A stretch of 64,000 bases of DNA from an uncultured archaeon (GTDB lineage: Archaea; Asgardarchaeota; Lokiarchaeia; Sigyniarchaeales; SOKP01). The stretch is from the NCBI GenBank assembly GCA_964493385.1, contig CAZBNW010000004.1, forward strand, positions 566 to 64,565, written 5' to 3'. Within the stretch, counting starts at the first letter, position 1, and every line of letters starts with the position of its first letter. Position numbers and translations under genes: made by a program. The notes beneath the pieces were generated by a model. It worked only from the letters and a program-made list of their open reading frames with translations, made no database searches and was not told where the DNA came from. Positions 438-56,258 of this stretch are shown here, piece by piece.

Positions 438-968
438 TTATTTTACAATTTCTTTTTTCTTTAGGATAGAGCGCGTTAAAGTTTCAAAAATATTTTTGTT
501 ATTTTCACCACTCTTCGAAGATGTTTCGAAAAAGTAGTCAAAATCATGTTTTTCTTTGAATTCTTCAGCGTGTTCATATTGTACACTTCTTCTTATGTCG
601 GCTAAATCAAGTTTTTCTCCAACCAAAATAAATACGGGATCATCAGCATTTTTATTAACGATAGTGTACCATTCATCCAAACTGTCAAAACTTGTACGTC
701 TTGTTATATCATAACATAATAAACATCCAGTTGCGCCTCTAGAATAATTAGGTAAAAATAGTCTAAAGCGTCTTTCTCCAGCAAAATCCCAAATTTGTAA
801 TGTAGTATTAATATTATCTATATCAACGTCAATTGTAGCCAAATCAGTTCCAATTGTAATCTTTTGAGGAATAAATTGCCCTGTTGTTAATCTCTGTACC
901 ATGGTGCTTTTTCCAACCCCTCCATCTCCCACAACAACGACTTTAAAAAGCATTCTTCTCTGCAACAT
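438..968 (-). CDS. Rab/Ras-like small GTPase
   Basis: P-loop GDGGVGKS, switch II WDFAGERRF (canonical form WDTAGQE), and LVGEKLDL as a divergent NKxD-like G4 box. Confidence 0.85.
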   Translation of the reverse strand: MLQRRMLFKVVVVGDGGVGKSTMVQRLTTGQFIPQKITIGTDLATIDVDIDNINTTLQIWDFAGERRFRLFLPNYSRGATGCLLCYDITRRTSFDSLDEWYTIVNKNADDPVFILVGEKLDLADIRRSVQYEHAEEFKEKHDFDYFFETSSKSGENNKNIFETLTRSILKKKEIVK

Positions 969-3682: not shown

Positions 3683-5023
3683 ATGAATTTTGTACCTCAT
3701 GATAATAAAACAATTGCAGAAATGTTAAATGTTATTGGTGCTAATTCTTTACAAGAACTTTTTCAGGATATTCCTAAAGATTTACTGATTGAGAATTTTA
3801 ACTTACCTTCTGGTTTATCCGAATCAGATCTTTTACATCAAATAAAGAAACTTTCTCAAAAGAATAAAGAATATTCAAGTTCTTTCATAGGAGCTGGTTG
3901 TTATTATCATTATATTCCATCTTTAGTTGATTTTGTAACCTCTCGATCTGAATTTTATACTTCTTATACACCATATCAAGCTGAGGCTAGTCAGGGTTAT
4001 TTACAAGCTATTTATGAATACCAAACTATAATCTCTCGACTGACACAAATGGATGTTGCAAACGCGAGTATGTATGATGGATCAACTGCCCTTGCTGAAG
4101 CTGCTATTATGGCTACGATTATTGCAAGGAAAAGTTCAGTTATCTTGCTTAGTGGGATTCACCCTGAATATGAAGAAGTCGTTAGAACCTATTGCTGGGG
4201 ACAAAATATTAATGTTGAAACTGTAAAAAAAGAAATTCTAATTGACAAATTAAATAATGAAGTAGCTGCTGTATTATTTCAAAGTCCTAACTTTTTTGGT
4301 GATATTGAAGATATTTCCAAAATCACAAAAATAGTGAGAGATAATTGCCCTAATTGTTTGATTATTCAAGTCATGACTGACCCAACCTGTCTAGGTATTC
4401 TAAAACCTCCTGGAGTAACTGATATTGACATTTTTGTAGCTGAAGGACAATCTTTTGGCATTAGTCCATCTTTTGGAGGACCAGGATTAGGAATATTTAC
4501 TGCTAAGCAAAAATATTTAAGAAAGATGCCGGGAAGATTGATTGGTAAAACTAAAGAAATTAATGGACAAAAAGAGGGATTCATACTTACTCTGCAAGCA
4601 CGTGAACAACATATACGCAGAGAAAAGGCAAGTTCTAATATTTGTACTAATCAAGCACTGTGTTCATTGGCAGCGTTATCTTATCTTTTAGCAGTGGGAA
4701 GAACTGGTTTAAAAGAAGTTGCATTTCAAAATTTTCAAAAAGCTCATTTTGCTAAAAAAGAACTTAGTAAACTTCCTGGTTATGAAATATTAAATAAGAA
4801 ACCAACTTATAACGAATTTTTAGTTAAATGTCCTAATATTAACGCTCTAATTAAGCAATGTAAACAAAGAAATCTTCAACCTCCTCTTAATATTTCACGC
4901 TACTATCCTGAAATGAAAAATATTGCTTTAGTTTGTGTAACTGAAATGAACTCAAAAGATTCAATTGATACATTTATAGAAGCAGCTCGATCTGTTTCAA
5001 ATGATAAAATGGAGGTAATATAA
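3683..5023 (+). CDS. gcvPA: Glycine dehydrogenase (decarboxylating) subunit 1
   Basis: 446-aa ORF with YTPYQAEASQG and a PFGGPGLG-like SFGGPGLG; lies next to gcvH and gcvPB. Confidence 0.9.
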   Translation: MNFVPHDNKTIAEMLNVIGANSLQELFQDIPKDLLIENFNLPSGLSESDLLHQIKKLSQKNKEYSSSFIGAGCYYHYIPSLVDFVTSRSEFYTSYTPYQAEASQGYLQAIYEYQTIISRLTQMDVANASMYDGSTALAEAAIMATIIARKSSVILLSGIHPEYEEVVRTYCWGQNINVETVKKEILIDKLNNEVAAVLFQSPNFFGDIEDISKITKIVRDNCPNCLIIQVMTDPTCLGILKPPGVTDIDIFVAEGQSFGISPSFGGPGLGIFTAKQKYLRKMPGRLIGKTKEINGQKEGFILTLQAREQHIRREKASSNICTNQALCSLAALSYLLAVGRTGLKEVAFQNFQKAHFAKKELSKLPGYEILNKKPTYNEFLVKCPNINALIKQCKQRNLQPPLNISRYYPEMKNIALVCVTEMNSKDSIDTFIEAARSVSNDKMEVI

Positions 5024-7516: not shown

Positions 7517-9484
7517 ATGGACTATTTATCTTTTTTCCCTTACGAGCAATTCAGAGAAAATCATGAGAATATTACCAAGCAGATTGAACTAAGTTCAAGA
7601 TCAAAAAAAGTAACTCTTTTATTAGCTCCTAATGGAACAGGAAAAACAATAATTGCTTTATGTGGGCTTTTACCTTTAGCTTATGAGAAAAATCTAAAAA
7701 TCATTTATATGTGTCGAACACATTCTCAAAATCGTAGAATAATCAAAGAGTTGATAAAAATCTCACAAAAAATAACCGATGATAATCTTGGAATTAAACT
7801 TAACTGTCTATCGATAAGAGGGAGAAATGAGATGTGCCTAAATAAAACCTTATTATCTCTTAAGCTAAATCCAAGGGAAGCTATGTCTGTTTGTAGAGAC
7901 TTAAGAAAGAATAGGAATTGTATTTATTTTTTAAATTTATTAAAAAAGAAGGGACAAAATGAAAATCCAATATCAATCGCACCAGAATTATTTAATAAGC
8001 CAGTTGATGCGGAAGATCTTATAAATTTCTGTAAGGTAAAAAAATTTTGTCCTTATTTCTTAAGTAAGTTCTTACTTGAACAGATGAAAGTAATTATCTG
8101 TAATTATCAATGGATTTTCAATCCATTCATTCGAGATTCTTTTTTAGAATTTATTGGTCAAGAGCTTCAAAACTGTATATTAGTATTAGATGAATGTCAT
8201 AATATAATTGATGTTGCTACAGAAGTAAATTCAAAAAAAATCACACCATATTCATTAAGACTTTGCTTAAAAGATCTAGAAATGTACAGGTCCCCTATCT
8301 TAATGCAGAGTTTTGTTAAAATATTATTAGATCAATTAAATGAGAAGAAAAATAATCTAAGAATTGAAGAAAAATCGGTTTTACCAGGTAAATTTTTAGA
8401 AATTATTTATAAAAAACTTGGACTTCATGACTTGAATGGATTTAAGATCTATATCGAAGAACTTCATGATTACAGTGTTTCAATTCATGAGGAAAAACTC
8501 GCTAATGGTGAAATCTCAAGAGATTTTGTTGGTTCTTTAGCAGAATTTTGGTTGAAATGGCTGAAAACATACACTTTAGATAATTATTTCTTTTGTTACA
8601 ATCTAAAAACCATTAAAGGAAAACGATTAGTATCACTTGAAATTGTAGCATTAGATCCGAGAGAAATTTCTATTCCTATCTTAAAAAGATGCTATACATG
8701 TTTAAATCTCTCTGGCACTGTGAATCCCTATGTTTTTAATAATTTAATGGGATTAAATGAATGTGGTAAGAGTTATAAAGGGATTATAGCAGGCTCACCA
8801 TTTAGTAATAAAAATATTAAGGCTATTATCACTGAAGGAGTAGATACTAAAAGAGATAATAGAATACCGAGTATGTTTAAAAAAATGATTAAGAAAATTA
8901 GTGAAGTTTTGCAATGTACTCCCGCAAATATAGGGATTTTTTGTGCATCCTATCAAATTCTTAATGCCCTCATAGAGAATGGTATAGAATCTGTAATAGA
9001 AAAAAATAATAAAAAACTCTTCATTGAGGAACCTGGATTGTCCGCCTCTGAAAATGCTGTTTTAGTAGATAATTTCAAAAGTATGGCTTCAAATGGAGGG
9101 GCTGTTTTATTAGGAGTATGTGGAGGAAGAAACTCAGAAGGAGAAGATTATCCAGGAGGCTTCATGAATTCTGTTATAATTGCTGGATTTCCATATCATC
9201 TACCAACTCCTAGAGTTGAGGCAAAAATAGGTTACTATGATAAAGTTTTTAAAAGACAAGGTTGGAATTTTGGGTACCTTTATCCAGCGGTGCAACGAGC
9301 CAATCAAGCTTCTGGGAGACCAATAAGAAAGATCTCTGATAAAGGGGCGATTATTTTTATGGATAGCCGATTTAAAGCAAAATATAAATGGATTTCAGAC
9401 TGGATAAGAAAAGAATTAGAAATAATTCCTGATAAACCCAATGCTATAATTCAGAACTTACATCCTTTTTGGAATGCTGTATAA
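7517..9484 (+). CDS. XPD/Rad3-family superfamily-2 DNA helicase
   Basis: Walker A APNGTGKT and a DEAH-like VLDECHNI. Four spaced Cys between them (EMCLN, SVCRD, NCIYF, FCPYF) fit the FeS domain. C-terminal QASGRPIR. Confidence 0.8.
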   Translation: MDYLSFFPYEQFRENHENITKQIELSSRSKKVTLLLAPNGTGKTIIALCGLLPLAYEKNLKIIYMCRTHSQNRRIIKELIKISQKITDDNLGIKLNCLSIRGRNEMCLNKTLLSLKLNPREAMSVCRDLRKNRNCIYFLNLLKKKGQNENPISIAPELFNKPVDAEDLINFCKVKKFCPYFLSKFLLEQMKVIICNYQWIFNPFIRDSFLEFIGQELQNCILVLDECHNIIDVATEVNSKKITPYSLRLCLKDLEMYRSPILMQSFVKILLDQLNEKKNNLRIEEKSVLPGKFLEIIYKKLGLHDLNGFKIYIEELHDYSVSIHEEKLANGEISRDFVGSLAEFWLKWLKTYTLDNYFFCYNLKTIKGKRLVSLEIVALDPREISIPILKRCYTCLNLSGTVNPYVFNNLMGLNECGKSYKGIIAGSPFSNKNIKAIITEGVDTKRDNRIPSMFKKMIKKISEVLQCTPANIGIFCASYQILNALIENGIESVIEKNNKKLFIEEPGLSASENAVLVDNFKSMASNGGAVLLGVCGGRNSEGEDYPGGFMNSVIIAGFPYHLPTPRVEAKIGYYDKVFKRQGWNFGYLYPAVQRANQASGRPIRKISDKGAIIFMDSRFKAKYKWISDWIRKELEIIPDKPNAIIQNLHPFWNAV

Positions 9485-10664
9485 CTTTTTTTTCTGGTAA
9501 TTTAAATAGAAAAAGAATAATTAATGTCGAAATTACTGGAAATATCATCATGAAAGACATAGATATATAATAATTAGACGGGAAAACTGCTAATAAAAAA
9601 CTAAAAAATACACCCCCTACTGTGGCACCCGCATACAAACTTGTGTTAGCATATCCCATGTACTTCCCCTTATTTTGAGGCGTAGAATTTTGAGCTATAT
9701 AAACTATGATTGCCATCCAATACATTGAATAGCTAAGAGAGATCATAATCTGAAAAATAAAGAAGCTCCAAAAATCAACAGACACAATATACCCAAAAAT
9801 AACAATAACAGATAAAATATTACCTATAATTATAAAAAATTTGATTTTCTTTTGAGTTAATATCTTTCCTACTAAAAGCAATAGAAAAAATTGTAATAAT
9901 GGATTTAAACCAATTAAAAATCCAATTTCAGTATTACTGGGTATGAAAATGTACATGATAAGTATAATAATCGTCAAGATTGGTTGGATACCAAAATTTC
10001 TAAAAAATTAGCTATAAAATAATGATTGAGAAATTTGGTCATCTTGTTCGGGAGGATTCATTAGCGTTTCTTTTTCAATATTCTCAGTTACCTTTTTATG
10101 ACTTTCTAATATTAACTGTCTATTCTCTCTAATGAAAAAAACAAAAATTATGCTTATCAAGTAAGTTATTAAGGTAAAAAAGAATATGTTTACAATACTA
10201 AATACATCGATCAACAAACCACCTATGAGTACTCCTAAAAACCATCCAATTGCGCCAATAGCGTTATAATAGGATATCCATTTTGTATCATTCTGAACTA
10301 ACTCACTGTAAAGAGTAAGATAAATTGTCAAAAATGAGGTGAAAAAGCCAAGGATAAATAGTTCTATATTTAATATTACTATATTTTGAGTAAATAAAAG
10401 TAAAACTAAAGTAATAAGCATCCCACCTGAACCAAAATATATAAAATAAACTCTATTCTGGAGTTTGTCTGAATATTTGCCTAAAAATGGTGGAAAAATA
10501 ACTAACGCGGACATAAAGACTGTTACTGTTAAAGTAATTATTGATGGTTCTGTACCTAAATCCTCTAAAAATGGGGGTACATAGGTAAGTAACATCATTA
10601 TAGAGAAGTAAATGAAAAAAGCAGATATTAAAAGAAAGACAACGGATTTTTTTGAAACAATCAC
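9444..10664 (-). pseudogene. MFS transporter paralogue interrupted by an in-frame TAA (10008..10010)
   Basis: ORFs 10008..10664 and 9444..9977 are in the same frame and together are colinear with the intact neighbour 10761..11930. The TAA aligns with a Leu codon of the paralogue. Confidence 0.7.
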
Positions 10665-20686: not shown

Positions 20687-21343
20687 TTAACCTTCCAATT
20701 CCTTTCTTAATTTGTCAATCTCATCCTTTAACTTTTCTTTTGACTTAAGTTCAGTTTCTTCTTCGAGTTCATCATACTCTGGTATGTACTGTAGATCATC
20801 TGCAGGAATTTCAGGCATTGCTCCTCCTTGTTCTAGAAGCATTTCTGTTTCTAATTGATTCAATTCTTCTGTAACATCAATAGCGAGATCAATTTCTGGA
20901 TCACCAGCTAATATTTCAGCTGCTTCTTCAATTTCCGCTACATATGCTTCAGAATCCTCTGCTATCTCAGCCACTTTCGCAGGAGATGCTTTTGTGGCTA
21001 TATATTCTAATTCATCTCTTATGCCTCCCATAACATCTCCAGTTTGGGATATTAGCATTCCCTCTTCTATTGCCTGAATTTGTCGTTCGATTTTTCCCCT
21101 AATATTAGTAGCACGGTCAACCTTCGCTTGATATGATTTATATTGTATTAGATAATTCTTAGCACGATCTTTTTCTCCTCGTTTTAAAGCAATTTTTGCA
21201 TTTTTTCGGCTTATTTCAGAACGCTTACTGTAATTTCTATTCATTAAATTTAATTTGTGAATATGACCTTTCGCTTTCATAACGAGATTCTCCTTCTCTT
21301 TGCTTTTTCTGGGAAATAGTTTCTTTTTTAAACCCATTTTCAC
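20687..21343 (-). CDS. ESCRT-III / Snf7 (CHMP)-family protein
   Basis: Basic N-terminal half (AKIALKRGEKDRAKNYLIQYKSYQAKV...) and an acidic C-terminal half ending in a MIM-like EKLKDEIDKLRKELEG. Size and charge layout match CHMP proteins. Confidence 0.65.
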   Translation of the reverse strand: MKMGLKKKLFPRKSKEKENLVMKAKGHIHKLNLMNRNYSKRSEISRKNAKIALKRGEKDRAKNYLIQYKSYQAKVDRATNIRGKIERQIQAIEEGMLISQTGDVMGGIRDELEYIATKASPAKVAEIAEDSEAYVAEIEEAAEILAGDPEIDLAIDVTEELNQLETEMLLEQGGAMPEIPADDLQYIPEYDELEEETELKSKEKLKDEIDKLRKELEG

Positions 21344-38585: not shown

Positions 38586-39119
38586 TTGATTAGGTTGACA
38601 CAATACGATTATACATTTAAAATGCTAATGTTGGGGGATGCATCTGTTGGTAAAACATCCCTTACGATAAGATATATTTCGGGCTATTTTCAGGAAGATT
38701 TAAAATTAACGATAGGTGTTGATTTTTATTCAAAAACAACAAACTTTAAAGATCAAAAAGTTAAATTACAGATATGGGATTTTGGAGGAGAACAAAGATT
38801 TAGATTCCTACTCTCACAATATTGTAAAGGTGCCAATGGGGCTTTTTTTTTGTATGATATTACTAATCAAGTCTCGTTAGACCATCTCCCCGATTGGACA
38901 CAGATAATTAGAGAAAACGCAGGAGACATTCCTATAATGTTAATCGGATCCAAAGTGGATCTTAATGAATTTAGAGCCGTTCCAAGAGATGATGGAATAT
39001 TAGCTGCAAAAAAATATAATCTTGCTTCTTTTGTAGAATTATCTTCTAAGACAGGAGAGAACGTAGAAAAAGCTTTCGAAGTTATAACAGAAATTCTTTT
39101 CGAAAAGTATTCAAGCTAA
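38586..39119 (+). CDS. Rab/Ras-like small GTPase
   Basis: GDASVGKTS, WDFGGEQRF, GSKVDL and SSKTG. TTG start. Confidence 0.85.
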   Translation: MIRLTQYDYTFKMLMLGDASVGKTSLTIRYISGYFQEDLKLTIGVDFYSKTTNFKDQKVKLQIWDFGGEQRFRFLLSQYCKGANGAFFLYDITNQVSLDHLPDWTQIIRENAGDIPIMLIGSKVDLNEFRAVPRDDGILAAKKYNLASFVELSSKTGENVEKAFEVITEILFEKYSS

Positions 39120-39702: not shown

Positions 39703-40236
39703 ATGACAGATATAAACAATGAAGAACCTCCAAGACCTCCAGGATTACAAATAAACACAAAAGCGCCACTGATAGATACTGTAGATATTTATGGGAATCC
39801 AATAAATTTAAAAGATCTTCTCCTATCTTACAATGGAGTTTTGATAGATTTTTTCCGAGGAAATTGGTGAAGTCATTGCAAAAAACACTTAAAGCTGTTA
39901 ACTGAGCATATCTCTGAATTTGAAAATAGAAATATTAAACTTATTTCTATTGCGAGCGATAGCGTCAGACTTCTGAGGATATTTAAAGAAGAAAATGATT
40001 TTAATGTTGACATGATATCTGATAGAGGTGCTAAAATAGCGAAGGAATATGATGTTTACTGGTTTGCTCCCGGTGGAGGAAAAAATTATAAAATAAAACA
40101 AGCAGTACCAAGTAAATTCCTCATCAATAAAAATGGTGAAATTATCTGGAAATATATAGGGAAAGATAAAACAGATAGACCCTCGATCGACATGATGATT
40201 AGCATTATTGATAAACAAATTATAAATCCCAAATAA
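39703..40236 (+). CDS. Thioredoxin-fold redoxin (AhpC/TSA-ResA-like), predicted selenoprotein with an in-frame TGA at 39868..39870
   Basis: ATG 39703 is in frame with listed ORF 40012..40236. The translation reads ...VLIDFFRGNW-TGA-SHCKKHL..., so TGA replaces the first Cys of WCxxC. The downstream D..G.IA..Y and P.KFLINKNGEI blocks fit the fold. Confidence 0.8.
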
Positions 40237-40245
40237 GAATGAATT

Positions 40246-40296
40246 GAGCGTAAAAAAATGAGACGTTCAAGGACAACCTTGTGAGGGTTTTGGGAT
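40246..40296 (+). promoter_or_regulatory. GC-rich hairpin island in the redoxin 3' UTR; candidate SECIS element
   Basis: CAAGG-ACAA-CCTTG stem-loop (40268..40281) flanked by UGAG on both sides (40259..62 and 40282..85). It is the only GC-rich stretch in this intergenic region. Confidence 0.3.
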
Positions 40297-40377
40297 TATT
40301 TTTCTTTTTATTTTTCAACAATAAATAAAAGTTGAACATAATTCTTCTATTTAATTACTAACTTTTTTGATTAGGAA

Positions 40378-41031
40378 ATGGAACAAGATAAAGAATTAAC
40401 TGATAAATTGGTTGAATATAGTAAAAAAGTTGGCCTTGATTTCATAGGCTTTGCAGATCCAAAATTGTTTGATCGATTCCCTAAAGCAAATCAACCTTTT
40501 GCATATTTAAAAGAAACTAAAACTGTGATAATCATTGGAATTTATATGTATGACATTATGCTTGATACATGGAGTTATCCAACAGGAAAAAGTTTACAAT
40601 TTGCTGATTCGGTTTTGAAAAATTATTGCAATTCAATTAGAAAATTTCTTATTAAGCATGGATTTCTGGCTAAAGTTATCCCATATCATCCTGGATTGTT
40701 TTTGAAGGATTCTGCTGCTCTAGCAGGACTCGGTTCAATTGGTAAAAATAATTTACTTATTACTGAAAAATATGGTTCACAAGTTAGATTAAGAGCAATA
40801 GTTACATCCGCACTACTGGAACTTGGAAACCCAATTTATGAAAATCCCTATTGCGAAGATTGTAATTTATGTATTGATTCATGCCCCGCTAAGGCATTTC
40901 CTAATGAAAAATATGACAGAAAAATCTGCAATGATTATAATCGCGCTAATTGGAAAATTCTTTCAAAATATTCCCGCCTTTGGTGTAATGAATGTATTGA
41001 ATCATGTCCAGTTGGTAAATCTAATAATTAG
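40378..41031 (+). CDS. QueG/reductive-dehalogenase-related 4Fe-4S protein
   Basis: N-terminal LDFIGFADP (DUF1730-like) and two ferredoxin-type motifs, CEDCNLCIDSCP and CNECIESCP. Confidence 0.55.
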   Translation: MEQDKELTDKLVEYSKKVGLDFIGFADPKLFDRFPKANQPFAYLKETKTVIIIGIYMYDIMLDTWSYPTGKSLQFADSVLKNYCNSIRKFLIKHGFLAKVIPYHPGLFLKDSAALAGLGSIGKNNLLITEKYGSQVRLRAIVTSALLELGNPIYENPYCEDCNLCIDSCPAKAFPNEKYDRKICNDYNRANWKILSKYSRLWCNECIESCPVGKSNN

Positions 41032-42182: not shown

Positions 42183-42232
42183 TGCTGGAAATAATAAAAT
42201 CGCTTAAATTTAAATCGTAATTAACGATTTAT
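42183..42232. repeat. Intergenic repeat copy B (conserved box plus 7-bp hairpin), abutting the histone stop codon
   Basis: tgctggaaataataaaatcgcttaaattt followed by AAATCGT-aatta-ACGATTT. Relative to copy A the stem differs by a paired change (T-A versus G-C). Confidence 0.5.
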
Positions 42233-42435
42233 ACTAAGCCAATAGCGATTTTCATATCTGCAGCAGTTACTTTCTTTCTGCCAGAGTGCTTTGCAATGTC
42301 AAGCGCGCAACCAGTCAAATTTTTAGCATATTCCTCTAAATAATCCATTAATTTGTCAACTGCGGCTCGACTTACGATTTCTGCTCCGGCTTTCTTCATT
42401 AGAGCCCGTAGTGGACTCCATGCAAATGCGGCCAT
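42229..42435 (-). CDS. Archaeal histone (HMf family)
   Basis: 68 aa: PLRALMKKAGAEIVSRAAVDKL...AKHSGRKKVTAADMKIA, a histone fold. Confidence 0.9.
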   Translation of the reverse strand: MAAFAWSPLRALMKKAGAEIVSRAAVDKLMDYLEEYAKNLTGCALDIAKHSGRKKVTAADMKIAIGLV

Positions 42436-44621: not shown

Positions 44622-45230
44622 ATGGCTGACCAAACAACTCCTCTTTCTAACATGGAAGAAAAAGGAAAACCAATTTATATTTTCAAGATATGCATTTTAG
44701 GGCAAGAAAGAGTCGGAAAAACATGTATCGCGAAAAGATTATGTTTTAACACATTTGATGTGAACACTAAGGAAACATTAGGAATCGAATTCTATACAAA
44801 AGATTTTCCTATTATTGTTGATGGAGAGGATACTTTTGTTAGGCTCAGTATTTGGGATTTTGGAGGACGAGAACAATTCAAAAAATTGTTTCCATATTAT
44901 ATTAATGGTGCCAATGGAATATTTATGGTTTTTGATTTAATAGATCTTCAAACTTTGCTGAGATTAGACTGGTGGTATGAGAGAATGGGTGAGTACAATC
45001 ATGCAAATACTCCAAGAATATTCATTGGTGCTAAAAATGACCTTATTAAAACAGCAGATGAGAAAGCTAGGGTTGACGATTTAGTTATAAATAGGTTCAT
45101 GGAAAGACATGATGAAGTTGACTTTTATAAAACTTCTTCGAAGGAGAATTTTAATATTAAATTAATTTTTAAAGAACTTGTCATTAAAATATTAGAAAAA
45201 AACAAATTGGATTATAATCGGTTAGCATAA
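44622..45230 (+). CDS. Rab/Ras-like small GTPase (divergent)
   Basis: GQERVGKTC P-loop, WDFGGREQF, GAKNDL and TSSKE. Confidence 0.8.
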   Translation: MADQTTPLSNMEEKGKPIYIFKICILGQERVGKTCIAKRLCFNTFDVNTKETLGIEFYTKDFPIIVDGEDTFVRLSIWDFGGREQFKKLFPYYINGANGIFMVFDLIDLQTLLRLDWWYERMGEYNHANTPRIFIGAKNDLIKTADEKARVDDLVINRFMERHDEVDFYKTSSKENFNIKLIFKELVIKILEKNKLDYNRLA

Positions 45231-51415: not shown

Positions 51416-54337
51416 GTGAGCTATACATTTTCAAGAACTAAAATGATTGAAAAAATCAAATTTGGGCTCCTAAGCCCTGATGAAATACGTAAAATGTCTG
51501 CTGCTCGTATAATCACAGCAGATACGTATGATGAAGATGGTCTCCCGATCCCGAGTGGACTTATGGACCAAAGACTAGGTACCATCGAACCTGGCCAACG
51601 TTGTCAGACCTGTGGAAATCTTGTAAGTAATTGCATGGGACATTTTGGCCATATTGAACTTGCAAGACCAGTTATTCATGTAGGTTATGCAAAAAAAGTG
51701 TTAAAAGTTCTTCGATCTATATGTCCTGAATGCTCTCGATTAATGCTAACTGAAGAGGAAAAAGAAAGTTTTAGACAAGAGCAGTTGAAGCATCGAAAAA
51801 TATTTTTTGAAGGTGATGAGGATGCCGCTAAAATTGTATTCAAAAAAGCGAGAAAAGTAAAGACATGCCCTCATTGTGGAGCTAAGAAAAAAAAGATAAT
51901 TATTGAGAAACCAACTACCTTTTATGAAGAAGAAGAAGGAAAAGGTTCACGGAGAATAACACCTATTGAGATTTTAGAACGATTAAAAAAAATGAGCGAT
52001 GTGGATCTTAGGATCCTCGGTATTTCACCTGAAAATGCTAGACTCGAATGGGTAATATTTACAGTCTTACCAATACCTCCCGTATGTGCAAGGCCATCAA
52101 TTACTTTAGATAGCGGAATTCGTTCTGAAGATGATTTAACGCATAAATTGGTTGATGTCATTCGAATTAATCAGAGATTAAGAGAAAATATTGATGCTGG
52201 AGCGCCACACTTAATTGTTGAAGATCTTTGGGAATTATTACAATATCATATTACAACTTATTTTGATAATCAAGTATCTGGGATCCCTCCTGCGAGACAT
52301 CGTTCTGGTAGAGCACTGAGAACGTTAACTCAGAGACTGAAAGGGAAAGAGGGAAGATTTAGAAGTAATTTAAGCGGGAAAAGAGTTGATTTTTCTGCCC
52401 GAAGTGTTATATCACCAAATCCATACATCAGTATTAATGATGTAGGTGTACCAATAGAAATTGCAAAAATTTTGACAATACCTACTAATGTTAACGATTG
52501 GAATATTGAAGAGATGAAGCAAATAGTCCTAAATGGTCCATTTAATCATCCAGGTGCAAATTATATTATACGAAATGATCGTAGAAGGATTGATCTTCGA
52601 TATGTGAAAAATAGAAAAATAATTGCAGATATGCTCACACCGGGCTTTACTGTTGAGCGTCACCTAAATGATGGGGACTTAGTGTTATTTAATCGCCAGC
52701 CTTCACTTCATAGAATGTCAATAATGGCTCATGAAGTAAAAATTATGAAAGGAAGAACTTTTCGATTAAACTTAACTGTATGTCCACCATACAATGCTGA
52801 TTTTGATGGAGATGAGATGAATTTACATGTACCTCAAAGTGAAGAAGCTCGAACGGAGGCAGAATTACTTCTTAAAGTTCAAGAACATATACTTTCTCCG
52901 CGATTTGGCGGACCAATCTTAGGTGGAATTCAAGATTTTATTTCAAGTGTATTTCAATTTACTAGTAAGGATTCATTATATAATAAAAAAGATACATTAA
53001 AATTATTGTATATTGGAGATGTTTATAAAAATAATCCTAATTTTAGTTTGGATCAACTTATTCCTGTAATTACCGATCCCAAACCAATGTATTCTGGAAA
53101 AGAAATTTTCAGTACATTATTTCCAGAGGATCTAAATATTAAAGTAAAATCTAAATTTTGTAAAAAATGTGAAGTCTGTGAAGAAGATAATTGTAGTTAT
53201 GACGCATATGTTGTAATTAAAAATGGTAAATTGATTACTGGAACTGTTGATGAGAATTCGTTTGGTGCCATGCAATCAAATAGTATATTACAACGAATTA
53301 TCAAGGATCATGGCAATGCGCGAGGAAGACAATTTTTAGACAGTGCTACTAAGATGCTCCTATACGTTATTAGGCAAAATGGAATGACTATGGGATTGGA
53401 TGAAGTATATGTGCATGGACATGCATATGATGAAATCAAAAAGATATTAGAAGAAGCAAATATAGAATCTGAGAAATTAATCAAAGCTTTTTATGATAAC
53501 GATACTAAAATACTTAAACGAGCTCCTGGTCGTTCTATGAGAGAAACCTTGGAATTAAGAATCAGACAGGTATTAGCAGAAGCCCGTAAAAAAGCTGAAG
53601 AAACAGCAGCAGAGTTCATTGGTGATGAAGCTCATTCAGTTATAATGACCAAATCTGGAGCCAGAGGTAATATATTAAATCTAGGACAAATGTCTGCTGT
53701 TGTTGGACAACAAGCTATTAGAGGTGAGAGAATTAATCGAGGATATAGTATGAGAACTTTACCTCATTTTAAAATAAATGACCTTAGTCCTCGAGCTCGT
53801 GGTTTTGTTGCATCCTCTTACCGAAATGGATTAAAACCAGTGGAATTCTTCTATCATGCTATGGGTGGTCGAGAAGGGCTTGTTGATACAGCAGTCAGAA
53901 CAAGCACATCTGGATACATGCAACGGAGGCTTGTAAACGCCTTACAAGATATGGTTGTTGAAAATGATGGAACTGTAAGAAACTCAGACAAAAATGTAAT
54001 CCAATTTTGCTTTGGAGATGATGGCATAGACGCTATGCATACCGATCACGGTGCTGCAGTAAATTTAGATGTTTTATTATTAAAGGCTAAAGCTTTGGAT
54101 GTTGAAAAGGTGCGTGAAGAAATTAAAAAAGACTCTACAACAAAAACTTCTCTATCTAAAAAGAAAGTTGTTTCTAAGAAAAAACAAATAAAAAAAGCTT
54201 CAGTTCAAGCACAACCGAAGAAAGTTAAAGTTGATGAAGATTCCTTACAGCAACAGTTTGAAGAGGAAACTGGCAAGAAAGCAATTTGGCGGGGTAAAGA
54301 AACTAAAGCTTATTTAGAATGGAAAGAAGAAAAATAG
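51416..54337 (+). CDS. rpoA1: DNA-directed RNA polymerase subunit A' with a ~70-aa Lys-rich C-terminal extension
   Basis: Zinc motifs CQTCG..CMGHFGH, the catalytic NADFDGDEMN, and RQPSLHRMS. GGAGGT at 51403..51408 lies 7 nt before GTG 51416. Confidence 0.95.
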   Translation: MSYTFSRTKMIEKIKFGLLSPDEIRKMSAARIITADTYDEDGLPIPSGLMDQRLGTIEPGQRCQTCGNLVSNCMGHFGHIELARPVIHVGYAKKVLKVLRSICPECSRLMLTEEEKESFRQEQLKHRKIFFEGDEDAAKIVFKKARKVKTCPHCGAKKKKIIIEKPTTFYEEEEGKGSRRITPIEILERLKKMSDVDLRILGISPENARLEWVIFTVLPIPPVCARPSITLDSGIRSEDDLTHKLVDVIRINQRLRENIDAGAPHLIVEDLWELLQYHITTYFDNQVSGIPPARHRSGRALRTLTQRLKGKEGRFRSNLSGKRVDFSARSVISPNPYISINDVGVPIEIAKILTIPTNVNDWNIEEMKQIVLNGPFNHPGANYIIRNDRRRIDLRYVKNRKIIADMLTPGFTVERHLNDGDLVLFNRQPSLHRMSIMAHEVKIMKGRTFRLNLTVCPPYNADFDGDEMNLHVPQSEEARTEAELLLKVQEHILSPRFGGPILGGIQDFISSVFQFTSKDSLYNKKDTLKLLYIGDVYKNNPNFSLDQLIPVITDPKPMYSGKEIFSTLFPEDLNIKVKSKFCKKCEVCEEDNCSYDAYVVIKNGKLITGTVDENSFGAMQSNSILQRIIKDHGNARGRQFLDSATKMLLYVIRQNGMTMGLDEVYVHGHAYDEIKKILEEANIESEKLIKAFYDNDTKILKRAPGRSMRETLELRIRQVLAEARKKAEETAAEFIGDEAHSVIMTKSGARGNILNLGQMSAVVGQQAIRGERINRGYSMRTLPHFKINDLSPRARGFVASSYRNGLKPVEFFYHAMGGREGLVDTAVRTSTSGYMQRRLVNALQDMVVENDGTVRNSDKNVIQFCFGDDGIDAMHTDHGAAVNLDVLLLKAKALDVEKVREEIKKDSTTKTSLSKKKVVSKKKQIKKASVQAQPKKVKVDEDSLQQQFEEETGKKAIWRGKETKAYLEWKEEK

Positions 54338-54371
54338 AATAATTATTATCAAAAGGAAGAGAATAAAAAAA

Positions 54372-54512
54372 ATGGCAAAAAAAAAATCAACAGGAAATCC
54401 TGATTTAGTAGCTTTAAAAAAACAATATAAAGAAGAAACAGGAAAAAATGCTGTCCATTGTGGAAAAATAACTAAAGGATTTCAAGAGTGGAAAAAACAA
54501 AAACAAGGTTAA
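54372..54512 (+). CDS. 46-aa ORF repeating the C-terminal mini-domain of RpoA1
   Basis: MAKKKSTGNPDLVALKKQYKEETGKNAVHCGKITKGFQEWKKQKQG aligns with the RpoA1 tail SLQQQFEEETGKKAIWRGKETKAYLEWKEEK. It is below the ORF-track size cut-off. Confidence 0.5.
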   Translation: MAKKKSTGNPDLVALKKQYKEETGKNAVHCGKITKGFQEWKKQKQG

Positions 54513-54519
54513 AATTTAA

Positions 54520-55778
<1,259 letters not shown>

Positions 55779-55886: not shown

Positions 55887-56258
55887 ATGGCAAATAGAAA
55901 GAGTAAGGATGTTGCTGGTAAAGTTGATCTAAGTAGAAAAAAAAAAAAAGAATTTGATGTTGGTACCAATATTAAAGTTGCTTATAAAACTGGCAAAATA
56001 GTATACGGTAAAAATCAAATCCTTAAAAACTTAAGGGAGAATCCCTTTAAAATGCTCATTGTGAGTAAAAATTGCCCAACAGAATTAATGAGTCAAGTAA
56101 ATTATTATAATTCTCTTTTAAAAGATGAAATCTTTATCTATAACTATAAAGGTTCAAGTTGGGATTTAGGGTTAGCATGTGCTAAACCATATATGATTTC
56201 TATTATAGGAGTAATTGATTTTGGAGATTCAGATTTAATATCTTTAAAAACTAAATAA
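55887..56258 (+). CDS. rpl30e: Ribosomal protein L30e (eL30) with a basic N-terminal extension
   Basis: YKTGKIVYG, KMLIVSKNCP and LGLACAKPYMISIIGVIDFGDS. Confidence 0.85.
   Translation: MANRKSKDVAGKVDLSRKKKKEFDVGTNIKVAYKTGKIVYGKNQILKNLRENPFKMLIVSKNCPTELMSQVNYYNSLLKDEIFIYNYKGSSWDLGLACAKPYMISIIGVIDFGDSDLISLKTK

Follow-up and report, generated by a model that had tools for sequence, protein, structure and literature searches.

The interval 39703-40236 encodes a Prx-like thiol:disulfide oxidoreductase (PrxL) of the UxxC form in a Lokiarchaeial (Promethearchaeota) genome. We consider it roughly 93% probable that the UGA at 39868-70 is decoded as Sec, directed by a lokiSECIS. The gene is the PrxL selenoprotein (PrxL.2, UxxC) of Mariotti et al. 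2016; it is already known and not new. Throughout, the window means the whole 64-kb stretch of DNA that was analysed. The features discussed below are collected in Table 1.

Table 1. Coordinates of the PrxL gene, its RNA element and eukaryotic-signature genes in the window.
Feature	Position	Strand	Remarks
PrxL (Prx-like thiol:disulfide oxidoreductase) selenoprotein CDS	39703..40236	+	Complete; 177 aa including one Sec; stop TAA 40234-40236
Sec codon TGA, first position of redox box U-S-H-C	39868..39870	+	TGA in 72/72 copies; Cys in 108/138 distant domains; aligns with first ResA Cys
TGC, resolving Cys of redox box, sole Cys of the protein	39877..39879	+	Aligns with peroxidatic Cys of BCP
5' arm of proposed lower helix H1, AAUCCCAA (final codons before the stop, Asn-Pro-Lys)	40225..40232	+	Pairs with 40290-40297
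lokiSECIS core	40239..40273	+	AUGA 40239-42; stem 40243-51/40263-71; loop 40252-62 AAAAAAAUGAG; GA 40272-73
Possible 3'-side hairpin H3 (AACCU / UGUGA loop / GGGUU)	40275..40289	+	Arms 40275-79/40285-89, between core GA and H1
Proposed lower helix H1, 3' arm UUGGGAUU	40290..40297	+	In the window centroid fold
T-rich tract directly after SECIS	40299..40316	+	T-rich tails follow the element in nearly all loci
Ras-family small GTPase	441-968	-	
Ras-family small GTPase	38586-39119	+	
Ras-family small GTPase	44622-45230	+	
ESCRT-III/Snf7 homologue	20687-21343	-	
Archaeal histone	42229-42435	-	68 aa

From ATG 39703 to the TAA, the gene is one frame of 178 codons. Its sole interruption is the TGA at 39868-39870, in the context FFRGNW-TGA-SHC (TGG 39865-67, TGA, AGT, CAT, TGC 39877-79). 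The mechanical ORF list broke this frame into a 55-aa head (39703..39870) and a 74-aa tail (40012..40236), and placed an antisense 106-aa ORF at 39898..40218. The sequence-only reading had described the tail and the antisense ORF, and both were present in the list together with the head. It had also proposed that ATG 39703 is in frame with the tail and that the TGA is the only interruption, which was confirmed by reading the sequence. An AhpC/TSA fold had been suggested for both sides of the TGA. As expected for such a fold, the product (with U written as C) matched Pfam AhpC-TSA (PF00578) across the TGA, over residues 17-149 (E=2.3e-21); it also matched Redoxin (PF08534, E=1.2e-15). The N-terminus and the length of the protein agreed with those of full-length homologues. 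No signal or anchor was evident, and we regard PrxL as a small cytoplasmic protein. It has one Cys in total and none outside the redox box. Across the family, one Cys was found in 58 copies, none in 13 and two in 1. The absence of Cys outside the redox box was remarked in the text of Mariotti et al. (PMC4989117).

The codons of the redox box were examined in relatives. A scan of one genome per species gave 67 Asgard loci with tblastn matches through the TGA (residues 1-177), and the window PrxL was 53-85% identical to these over the matched residues, with a maximum of 85% to any genome representative. Codons were read directly in 72 PrxL copies, namely the window copy and 71 copies from 64 of the 67 loci. 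The first redox-box codon was TGA in 72/72 copies, well outside what chance would give. The second was TGT in 32 and TGC in 26 (Cys in 58), and TGA in the remaining 14, which are of the UxxU form. No Asgard PrxL orthologue among the 72 copies had a Cys form at the first box position. The earlier reading had raised the chance that the true codon is TGT or TGC; all 72 independent assemblies carried TGA.

More distant relatives (identity of 50% or less) were gathered with the homologue P0002 as query. In these, CxxC occupied the box in 108/138 aligned domains, typically as FYRGxWCPYC. The Sec column aligned with the first Cys of WCKPC in ResA (PDB 4nmu). Both results agree with the proposal, made from the sequence, that the TGA stands at the nucleophilic Cys of a WCxxC motif. 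When the archaeal BCP (PDB 2cx3) was used for comparison, the Sec column corresponded to the Ser/Thr of S/TxxC, and the second Cys to the peroxidatic Cys.

Selection and gene order were also analysed. Upstream of the TGA (39 codons), pN/pS was 0.27 in frame versus 1.09 and 1.28 in the two alternative frames, and downstream (60 codons) it was 0.13. Purifying selection acts on the PrxL frame ahead of the TGA. The order NurA (minus strand) / CAAX protease / Ras-like GTPase / PrxL was kept in at least 35 genomes; therefore, the window PrxL is a positional orthologue. In the window, the Ras gene of this conserved order, just upstream of PrxL, is the one at 38586. In 7 loci (L004, L007, L011, L012, L013, L021 and L024), PrxL occurred as a tandem pair in which a UxxC copy was followed about 740 nt later by a UxxU copy with two Sec. 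Each of these paralogues had its own SECIS, as in L004 (3001-3534 and about 3745-4274). The window carries the UxxC copy only; the rest of its 64 kb yielded no further lokiSECIS, no other redoxin interrupted by UGA and no PrxL paralogue.

The sequence-only reading had proposed a SECIS search in 40237..40377, and an element was present inside this interval, starting 2 nt after the TAA of PrxL. The stem arms AUUGAGCGU (40243-51) and ACGUUCAAG (40263-71) form 8 standard pairs and an A.G next to the core. The apical loop AAAAAAAUGAG is 11 nt long, A-rich, and ends in AG. The lokiSECIS pattern had this single match in the window. The core folded at -7.3 kcal/mol with a z of -3.5 when delimited; folded as one piece, 40237-40377 gave z = 0, and the lokiSECIS stands out only when delimited. 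In the text of PMC4989117, the lokiSECIS is defined by AUGA, a 9-bp stem, an 11-nt loop and GA or AA after the stem, near the stop codon; the first five loop bases are adenine-rich, and the last is G, usually preceded by A. The window element meets every one of these published features. Directly downstream, the T-rich tract at 40299-40316 is likely an archaeal oligo-T transcription terminator, judging from its composition.

The same architecture followed 70/72 PrxL copies. The exceptions were L055, with an AGGA core, and L019, where the element is cut by the contig end. Of the loops, 60 were 11 nt long and 12 were 12 nt long; the last loop base, G, was invariant in the alignment of 70. Variants of the core were AGGA for AUGA (L055:3506-3584) and AA for GA after the stem (L001:3537-3571). 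In 7 loci (L002, L008, L016, L029, L039, L053 and L065; SECIS offset -4), the usual TAA position was a sense codon and the gene stop was the UGA of the AUGA core. A stop codon that shares bases with the AUGA core was already noted in the text of PMC11227280.

Covariation was tested on an unfitted MAFFT alignment of 70 elements. Double-sided changes were found in 8/9 pairs of the lokiSECIS stem (for example UA:34/CG:31, GC:46/AU:18 and UA:34/CG:21). Under a three-helix model, 83.7% of cells paired, versus 25-50% with the partner slid. The covariation score was 0.424 versus at most 0.144 when slid, and 0/500 shuffles reached 0.424. RNAalifold on the unfitted alignment found the stem independently, with 7/8 pairs compensatory. 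A covariance model built from the SECIS alignment had one match in the window (96 bits, 40223-40304), at the place of the element. In 466 kb of loci, it had 75 matches, each directly after a PrxL copy, including those in 5 held-out loci. No SECIS family of Rfam matched at the locus (E up to 10) or in the whole window (gathering). This was expected, since the authors of the lokiSECIS report, in the text of PMC4989117, that existing SECIS tools fail on Lokiarchaeal genes. The weak Rfam matches to snoR21 and STnc230 at the locus were set aside as chance, though the snoR21 alignment paired the same AAUCCC/GGGAUU ends.

The flanks of the core may pair as well. According to its text, the 2024 survey (PMC11227280) modelled the core, upper stem and loop only, with family-specific lower stems for frhA and selD, not prxL. 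In contrast to such published lokiSECIS models, the flanks of the window element probably also pair (H1), and a further hairpin (H3) is possible. In an alignment-free test, the flanks paired with at least 5 bp in 73/75 SECIS sequences. On average, 7.6 pairs formed versus 3.5 when the 3' flank was shuffled, at energies of -10.0 versus -4.9 kcal/mol. Compensatory variants of H1 included AUCCU/AGGAU and ACCCC/GGGGU. H1 was kept in species in which the CDS ends earlier, where the 5' arm lies in the 3' UTR. The centroid fold of the window contained H1, H2 and H3 (z -2.3). The best pair statistics for H1 and H3 come from a model-fitted alignment. For H3, 88% of cells were paired and 3/5 pairs had a double-sided change. 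RNAalifold on the unfitted alignment recovered neither H1 nor H3, and H3 did no better than shuffles in the alignment-free test. For these reasons, we grade H1 as probable and H3 as weak. The text of the published lokiSECIS papers contained no description of H1 or H3 for prxL.

Taken as a whole, the larger element is a tentative proposal, to which we give somewhat less than even odds. It holds that the prxL SECIS extends beyond the published lokiSECIS, with H1 pairing AAUCCCAA with UUGGGAUU 17 nt past the core and the stop codon inside an internal loop, and perhaps with H3 completing a three-way junction. If this is true, the conserved C-terminal 'NP' of PrxL would be a by-product of RNA structure, and a ribosome reaching the stop would need to unfold some of the SECIS. 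Constructs with the minimal core might then fail without H1, which is one possible cause of the inactive Loki SECIS in a heterologous test.

With respect to mechanism, Sec insertion at UGA 39868 would follow the established course of Sec decoding described in the cited papers. Sec-tRNA(Sec) would be brought by an archaeal/eukaryotic-type EFsec to this UGA, 371 nt upstream of the SECIS, and the AUGA/GA core of the lokiSECIS would fold as a kink-turn. In the protein, Sec would be the nucleophilic first position of the thioredoxin-type box U-S-H-C. If PrxL works like CxxC redoxins, its U56 and C59 would alternate between the selenolate/thiol state and a selenenylsulfide joining the two. Within the 64-kb window, ARAGORN found 0 tRNAs, and 0 Rfam families, tRNA-Sec included, reached gathering. 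No Pfam domain of the Sec machinery (EFsec, PSTK, SepSecS, SelD) was detected in the 57 long ORFs and the 68-aa histone ORF. The Sec competence of this genome is therefore presumed from its relatives and from the literature. In the text of Huang et al. (PMC11227280), the Sec trait is given for 85.9% of Lokiarchaeia/Helarchaeales genomes, and Prx-like selenoproteins for 43.2% of Sec-using Asgard archaea.

The UGA could instead be read through or suppressed without Sec (for example with Cys or Trp by a near-cognate tRNA), or translation could end there while the 3' RNA element has another role. We regard this as very improbable. It gains something from the lack of Sec-machinery genes in the 64 kb, and from a report in which one lokiSECIS tested in the methanogen Methanococcus maripaludis was not functional (PMC11881835). 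According to the same report, no experimental proof of function exists for any lokiSECIS. However, the element has the AUGA/GA core, the A-rich loop and the position of a SECIS, and was found only after PrxL copies. The recoded position is exactly the Cys of the CxxC relatives, and the frequency of the Sec machinery among Lokiarchaeia/Helarchaeales genomes cited above also argues against decoding without Sec.

A change of the genetic code is suggested at first sight by protein databases. Our protein search gave two populations: 'full-length' proteins of 170-177 aa from short contigs, and proteins of 112-117 aa from MAGs (Lokiarchaeota, Promethearchaeota and Thorarchaeota), which cover the C-terminal 63-65% of PrxL only. 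Every full-length database PrxL had Trp at the TGA column (FFRGNWWSHC), and some had Trp at the second box position too. On the DNA, this 'W' was a TGA (L068:357-890, TGG TGA AGT CAC); therefore, the full-length proteins are code-4 translations, and the short ones are restarts after the TGA. The PrxL family is thus systematically misrepresented in protein databases, either shortened or with the Sec codon rendered as Trp. Distant representatives whose box reads WxxC or WxxW, among them P0121, P0124, P0135, P0143, P0157 and P0230, are probably further unrecognised selenoproteins. An 8-kb contig with an Asgard PrxL and SECIS (L047, DATKTW010000172.1) was binned in the MAG 'Candidatus Nanopelagicaceae bacterium' (Actinobacteria); it is most likely a mis-binned contig.

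The use of TGA in ordinary genes was determined from 57 non-overlapping ORFs of at least 120 aa under the standard code, which cover 84% of the window. Their stops were TAA in 45, TGA in 8 and TAG in 4. The sequence-only reading had cited four ordinary TGA stops (25147-49, 27546-48, 34059-61 and 35728-30). All four proved to be true ends of long ORFs with Pfam domains (GH57, dNK-like kinase, Rpb4 and KsgA). For some TGA-ended ORFs of the window, the next gene begins within a few bases. Moreover, the invariant Trp120 of PrxL was TGG in 70/70 genome copies and never TGA. The claim that the TGA reflects context-dependent recoding and not a code change is therefore supported, both by the ordinary TGA stops in the window and by TGG at Trp120 in these copies.

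These results bear directly on the reassignment of TGA to Trp (code 4-like), as in the database translations. This reading could draw on the W at the Sec column in about 40 full-length homologues among public gene calls, and on a Logan contig (L068) that has TGA at Trp120 too. However, the W of the database proteins is TGA on the DNA, and relatives carry Cys, not Trp, at this column. MAG annotations under code 11 shorten the gene to 112-117 aa, and TGA ends 8/57 long ORFs of the window. Together with TGG at Trp120 in the 70 genome copies, the TGA stops and the Cys in relatives effectively refute reassignment, to which we assign a negligible probability. The Logan contig has low coverage, and its TGA (713-715), at a Trp120 that does not vary in the genome copies, probably reflects an error or a dead allele. 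It is probably also the reason why the gene caller chose code 4. A pseudogene, a nonsense mutation or a sequencing or assembly error splitting an ordinary Cys-redoxin gene has only the raw look of two ORFs in its favour and practically no probability left, being ruled out by the identical TGA in 72/72 independent assemblies and contradicted by purifying selection on both halves and by a dedicated, conserved RNA element downstream.

Decoding of the UGA as Sec agrees with what has been published for this family. The sequence-only reading had cited Mariotti et al. 2016 for Sec use in Lokiarchaeota, and that paper indeed describes the very same family (PrxL.2, UxxC) with its SECIS. In its text (PMC4989117), PrxL.2 is the UxxC form and PrxL.1 the UxxU form, and both the family and the SECIS are described in Lokiarchaeota. 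The Prx-like selenoprotein was re-surveyed across Asgard archaea in 2024 (Huang et al., text of PMC11227280), and a 2026 review lists a 'Prx-like thiol:disulfide oxidoreductase, PF00578, UxxC/UxxU' (PMC13188914). The window protein shares with the published PrxL.2 the AhpC/TSA scaffold, the UxxC box with Sec first, and the lack of Cys outside the box. It also shares the lokiSECIS directly after the stop and the Lokiarchaeial host. Nothing essential differs, and the window gene is another orthologue. Likewise, its RNA element has the AUGA, the 9-position stem, the 11-nt loop with 5' adenines and terminal AG, and the GA of the published lokiSECIS, lies 2 nt from the stop, and folds below -5 kcal/mol.

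The element was also compared with eukaryotic type I SECIS. Both have the AUGA_GA quartet core, an apical loop with unpaired adenines, a 3'-UTR location and, in the window through the probable H1, a helix below the internal loop. In contrast, the upper stem in the window is shorter (9 positions versus about 12-15), and the window element lies immediately after the stop, overlapping the last codons, and is without an Rfam SECIS match. According to the text of PMC4989117, no SBP2 homologue is known in Asgard archaea.

At the protein level, PrxL has the same fold as ResA/CcmG-type oxidoreductases (PDB 4nmu, 1st9) and archaeal BCP (PDB 2cx3, 2ywn), with sequence similarity at E of about 1e-10. In the alignment, W-U-S-H-C of PrxL falls on the W-C-x-x-C box of ResA, with Sec in place of Cys. 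Compared with a typical peroxiredoxin (AhpC/BCP, PxxxT/SxxC), PrxL is without the Pro, and Sec sits at the Ser/Thr column. PrxL is not a typical peroxiredoxin, since it has neither the T/SxxC motif nor the Pro; the text of PMC4989117 states that it 'lacks typical Prx features'. A ResA/thioredoxin-like redox box on a Prx scaffold is an accurate description, because the BCP alignment puts Sec at the Ser/Thr and the second Cys at the peroxidatic Cys.

The gene content of the window (G+C 29%) fits a Lokiarchaeial genome. The Ras GTPases, ESCRT-III/Snf7 and histone in Table 1 are eukaryotic-signature genes typical of Asgard archaea, and the window also encodes NurA and an rpoA1-rpoA2-L30e-NusA-S12-S7 cluster. 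Directly 3' of the SECIS lies a gene (40378-41031, +) whose 217-aa product has two ferredoxin-like CxxCxxCxxxCP motifs and no Pfam match at E <=1e-5. Homologues of this gene were found downstream in 6 loci only, at a distance of at least about 1.85 kb from the stop of PrxL, and it is therefore not a fixed partner of PrxL. An L7Ae/L30e-family protein, with a kink-turn-binding fold, is encoded at 55887-56258 (+) in the rpoA-NusA-S12-S7 cluster and is almost certainly ribosomal L30e. In the same region, the gap between rpoA1 (51416-54337) and the ORF with the rest of Rpb1 domain 5 (54921-55778) is unusually long, about 580 nt. It (54337-54921) holds only a short, very basic ORF, with many stops upstream in the rpoA2 frame. 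Elsewhere, an MFS transporter gene (9447-10664, -) is interrupted once, by an in-frame TAA (10008-10010), which leaves two same-frame half-ORFs (...SLFYS*FFRNFG...); this may reflect a pseudogene, an error or a pair of half-transporters.

The PrxL gene mainly confirms known biology, namely the presence in Lokiarchaeia of a Prx-like selenoprotein that has a eukaryote-like SECIS. The residual value of the analysis lies in the documented systematic mis-annotation and in the likely lower helix of the prxL SECIS. With TGA in 72/72 copies and 75 aligned SECIS elements with the likely lower helix, the data set offers a compact basis for the design of a functional lokiSECIS reporter. The Lokiarchaeial PrxL and its SECIS are a key exhibit for an archaeal origin of the eukaryotic Sec system.
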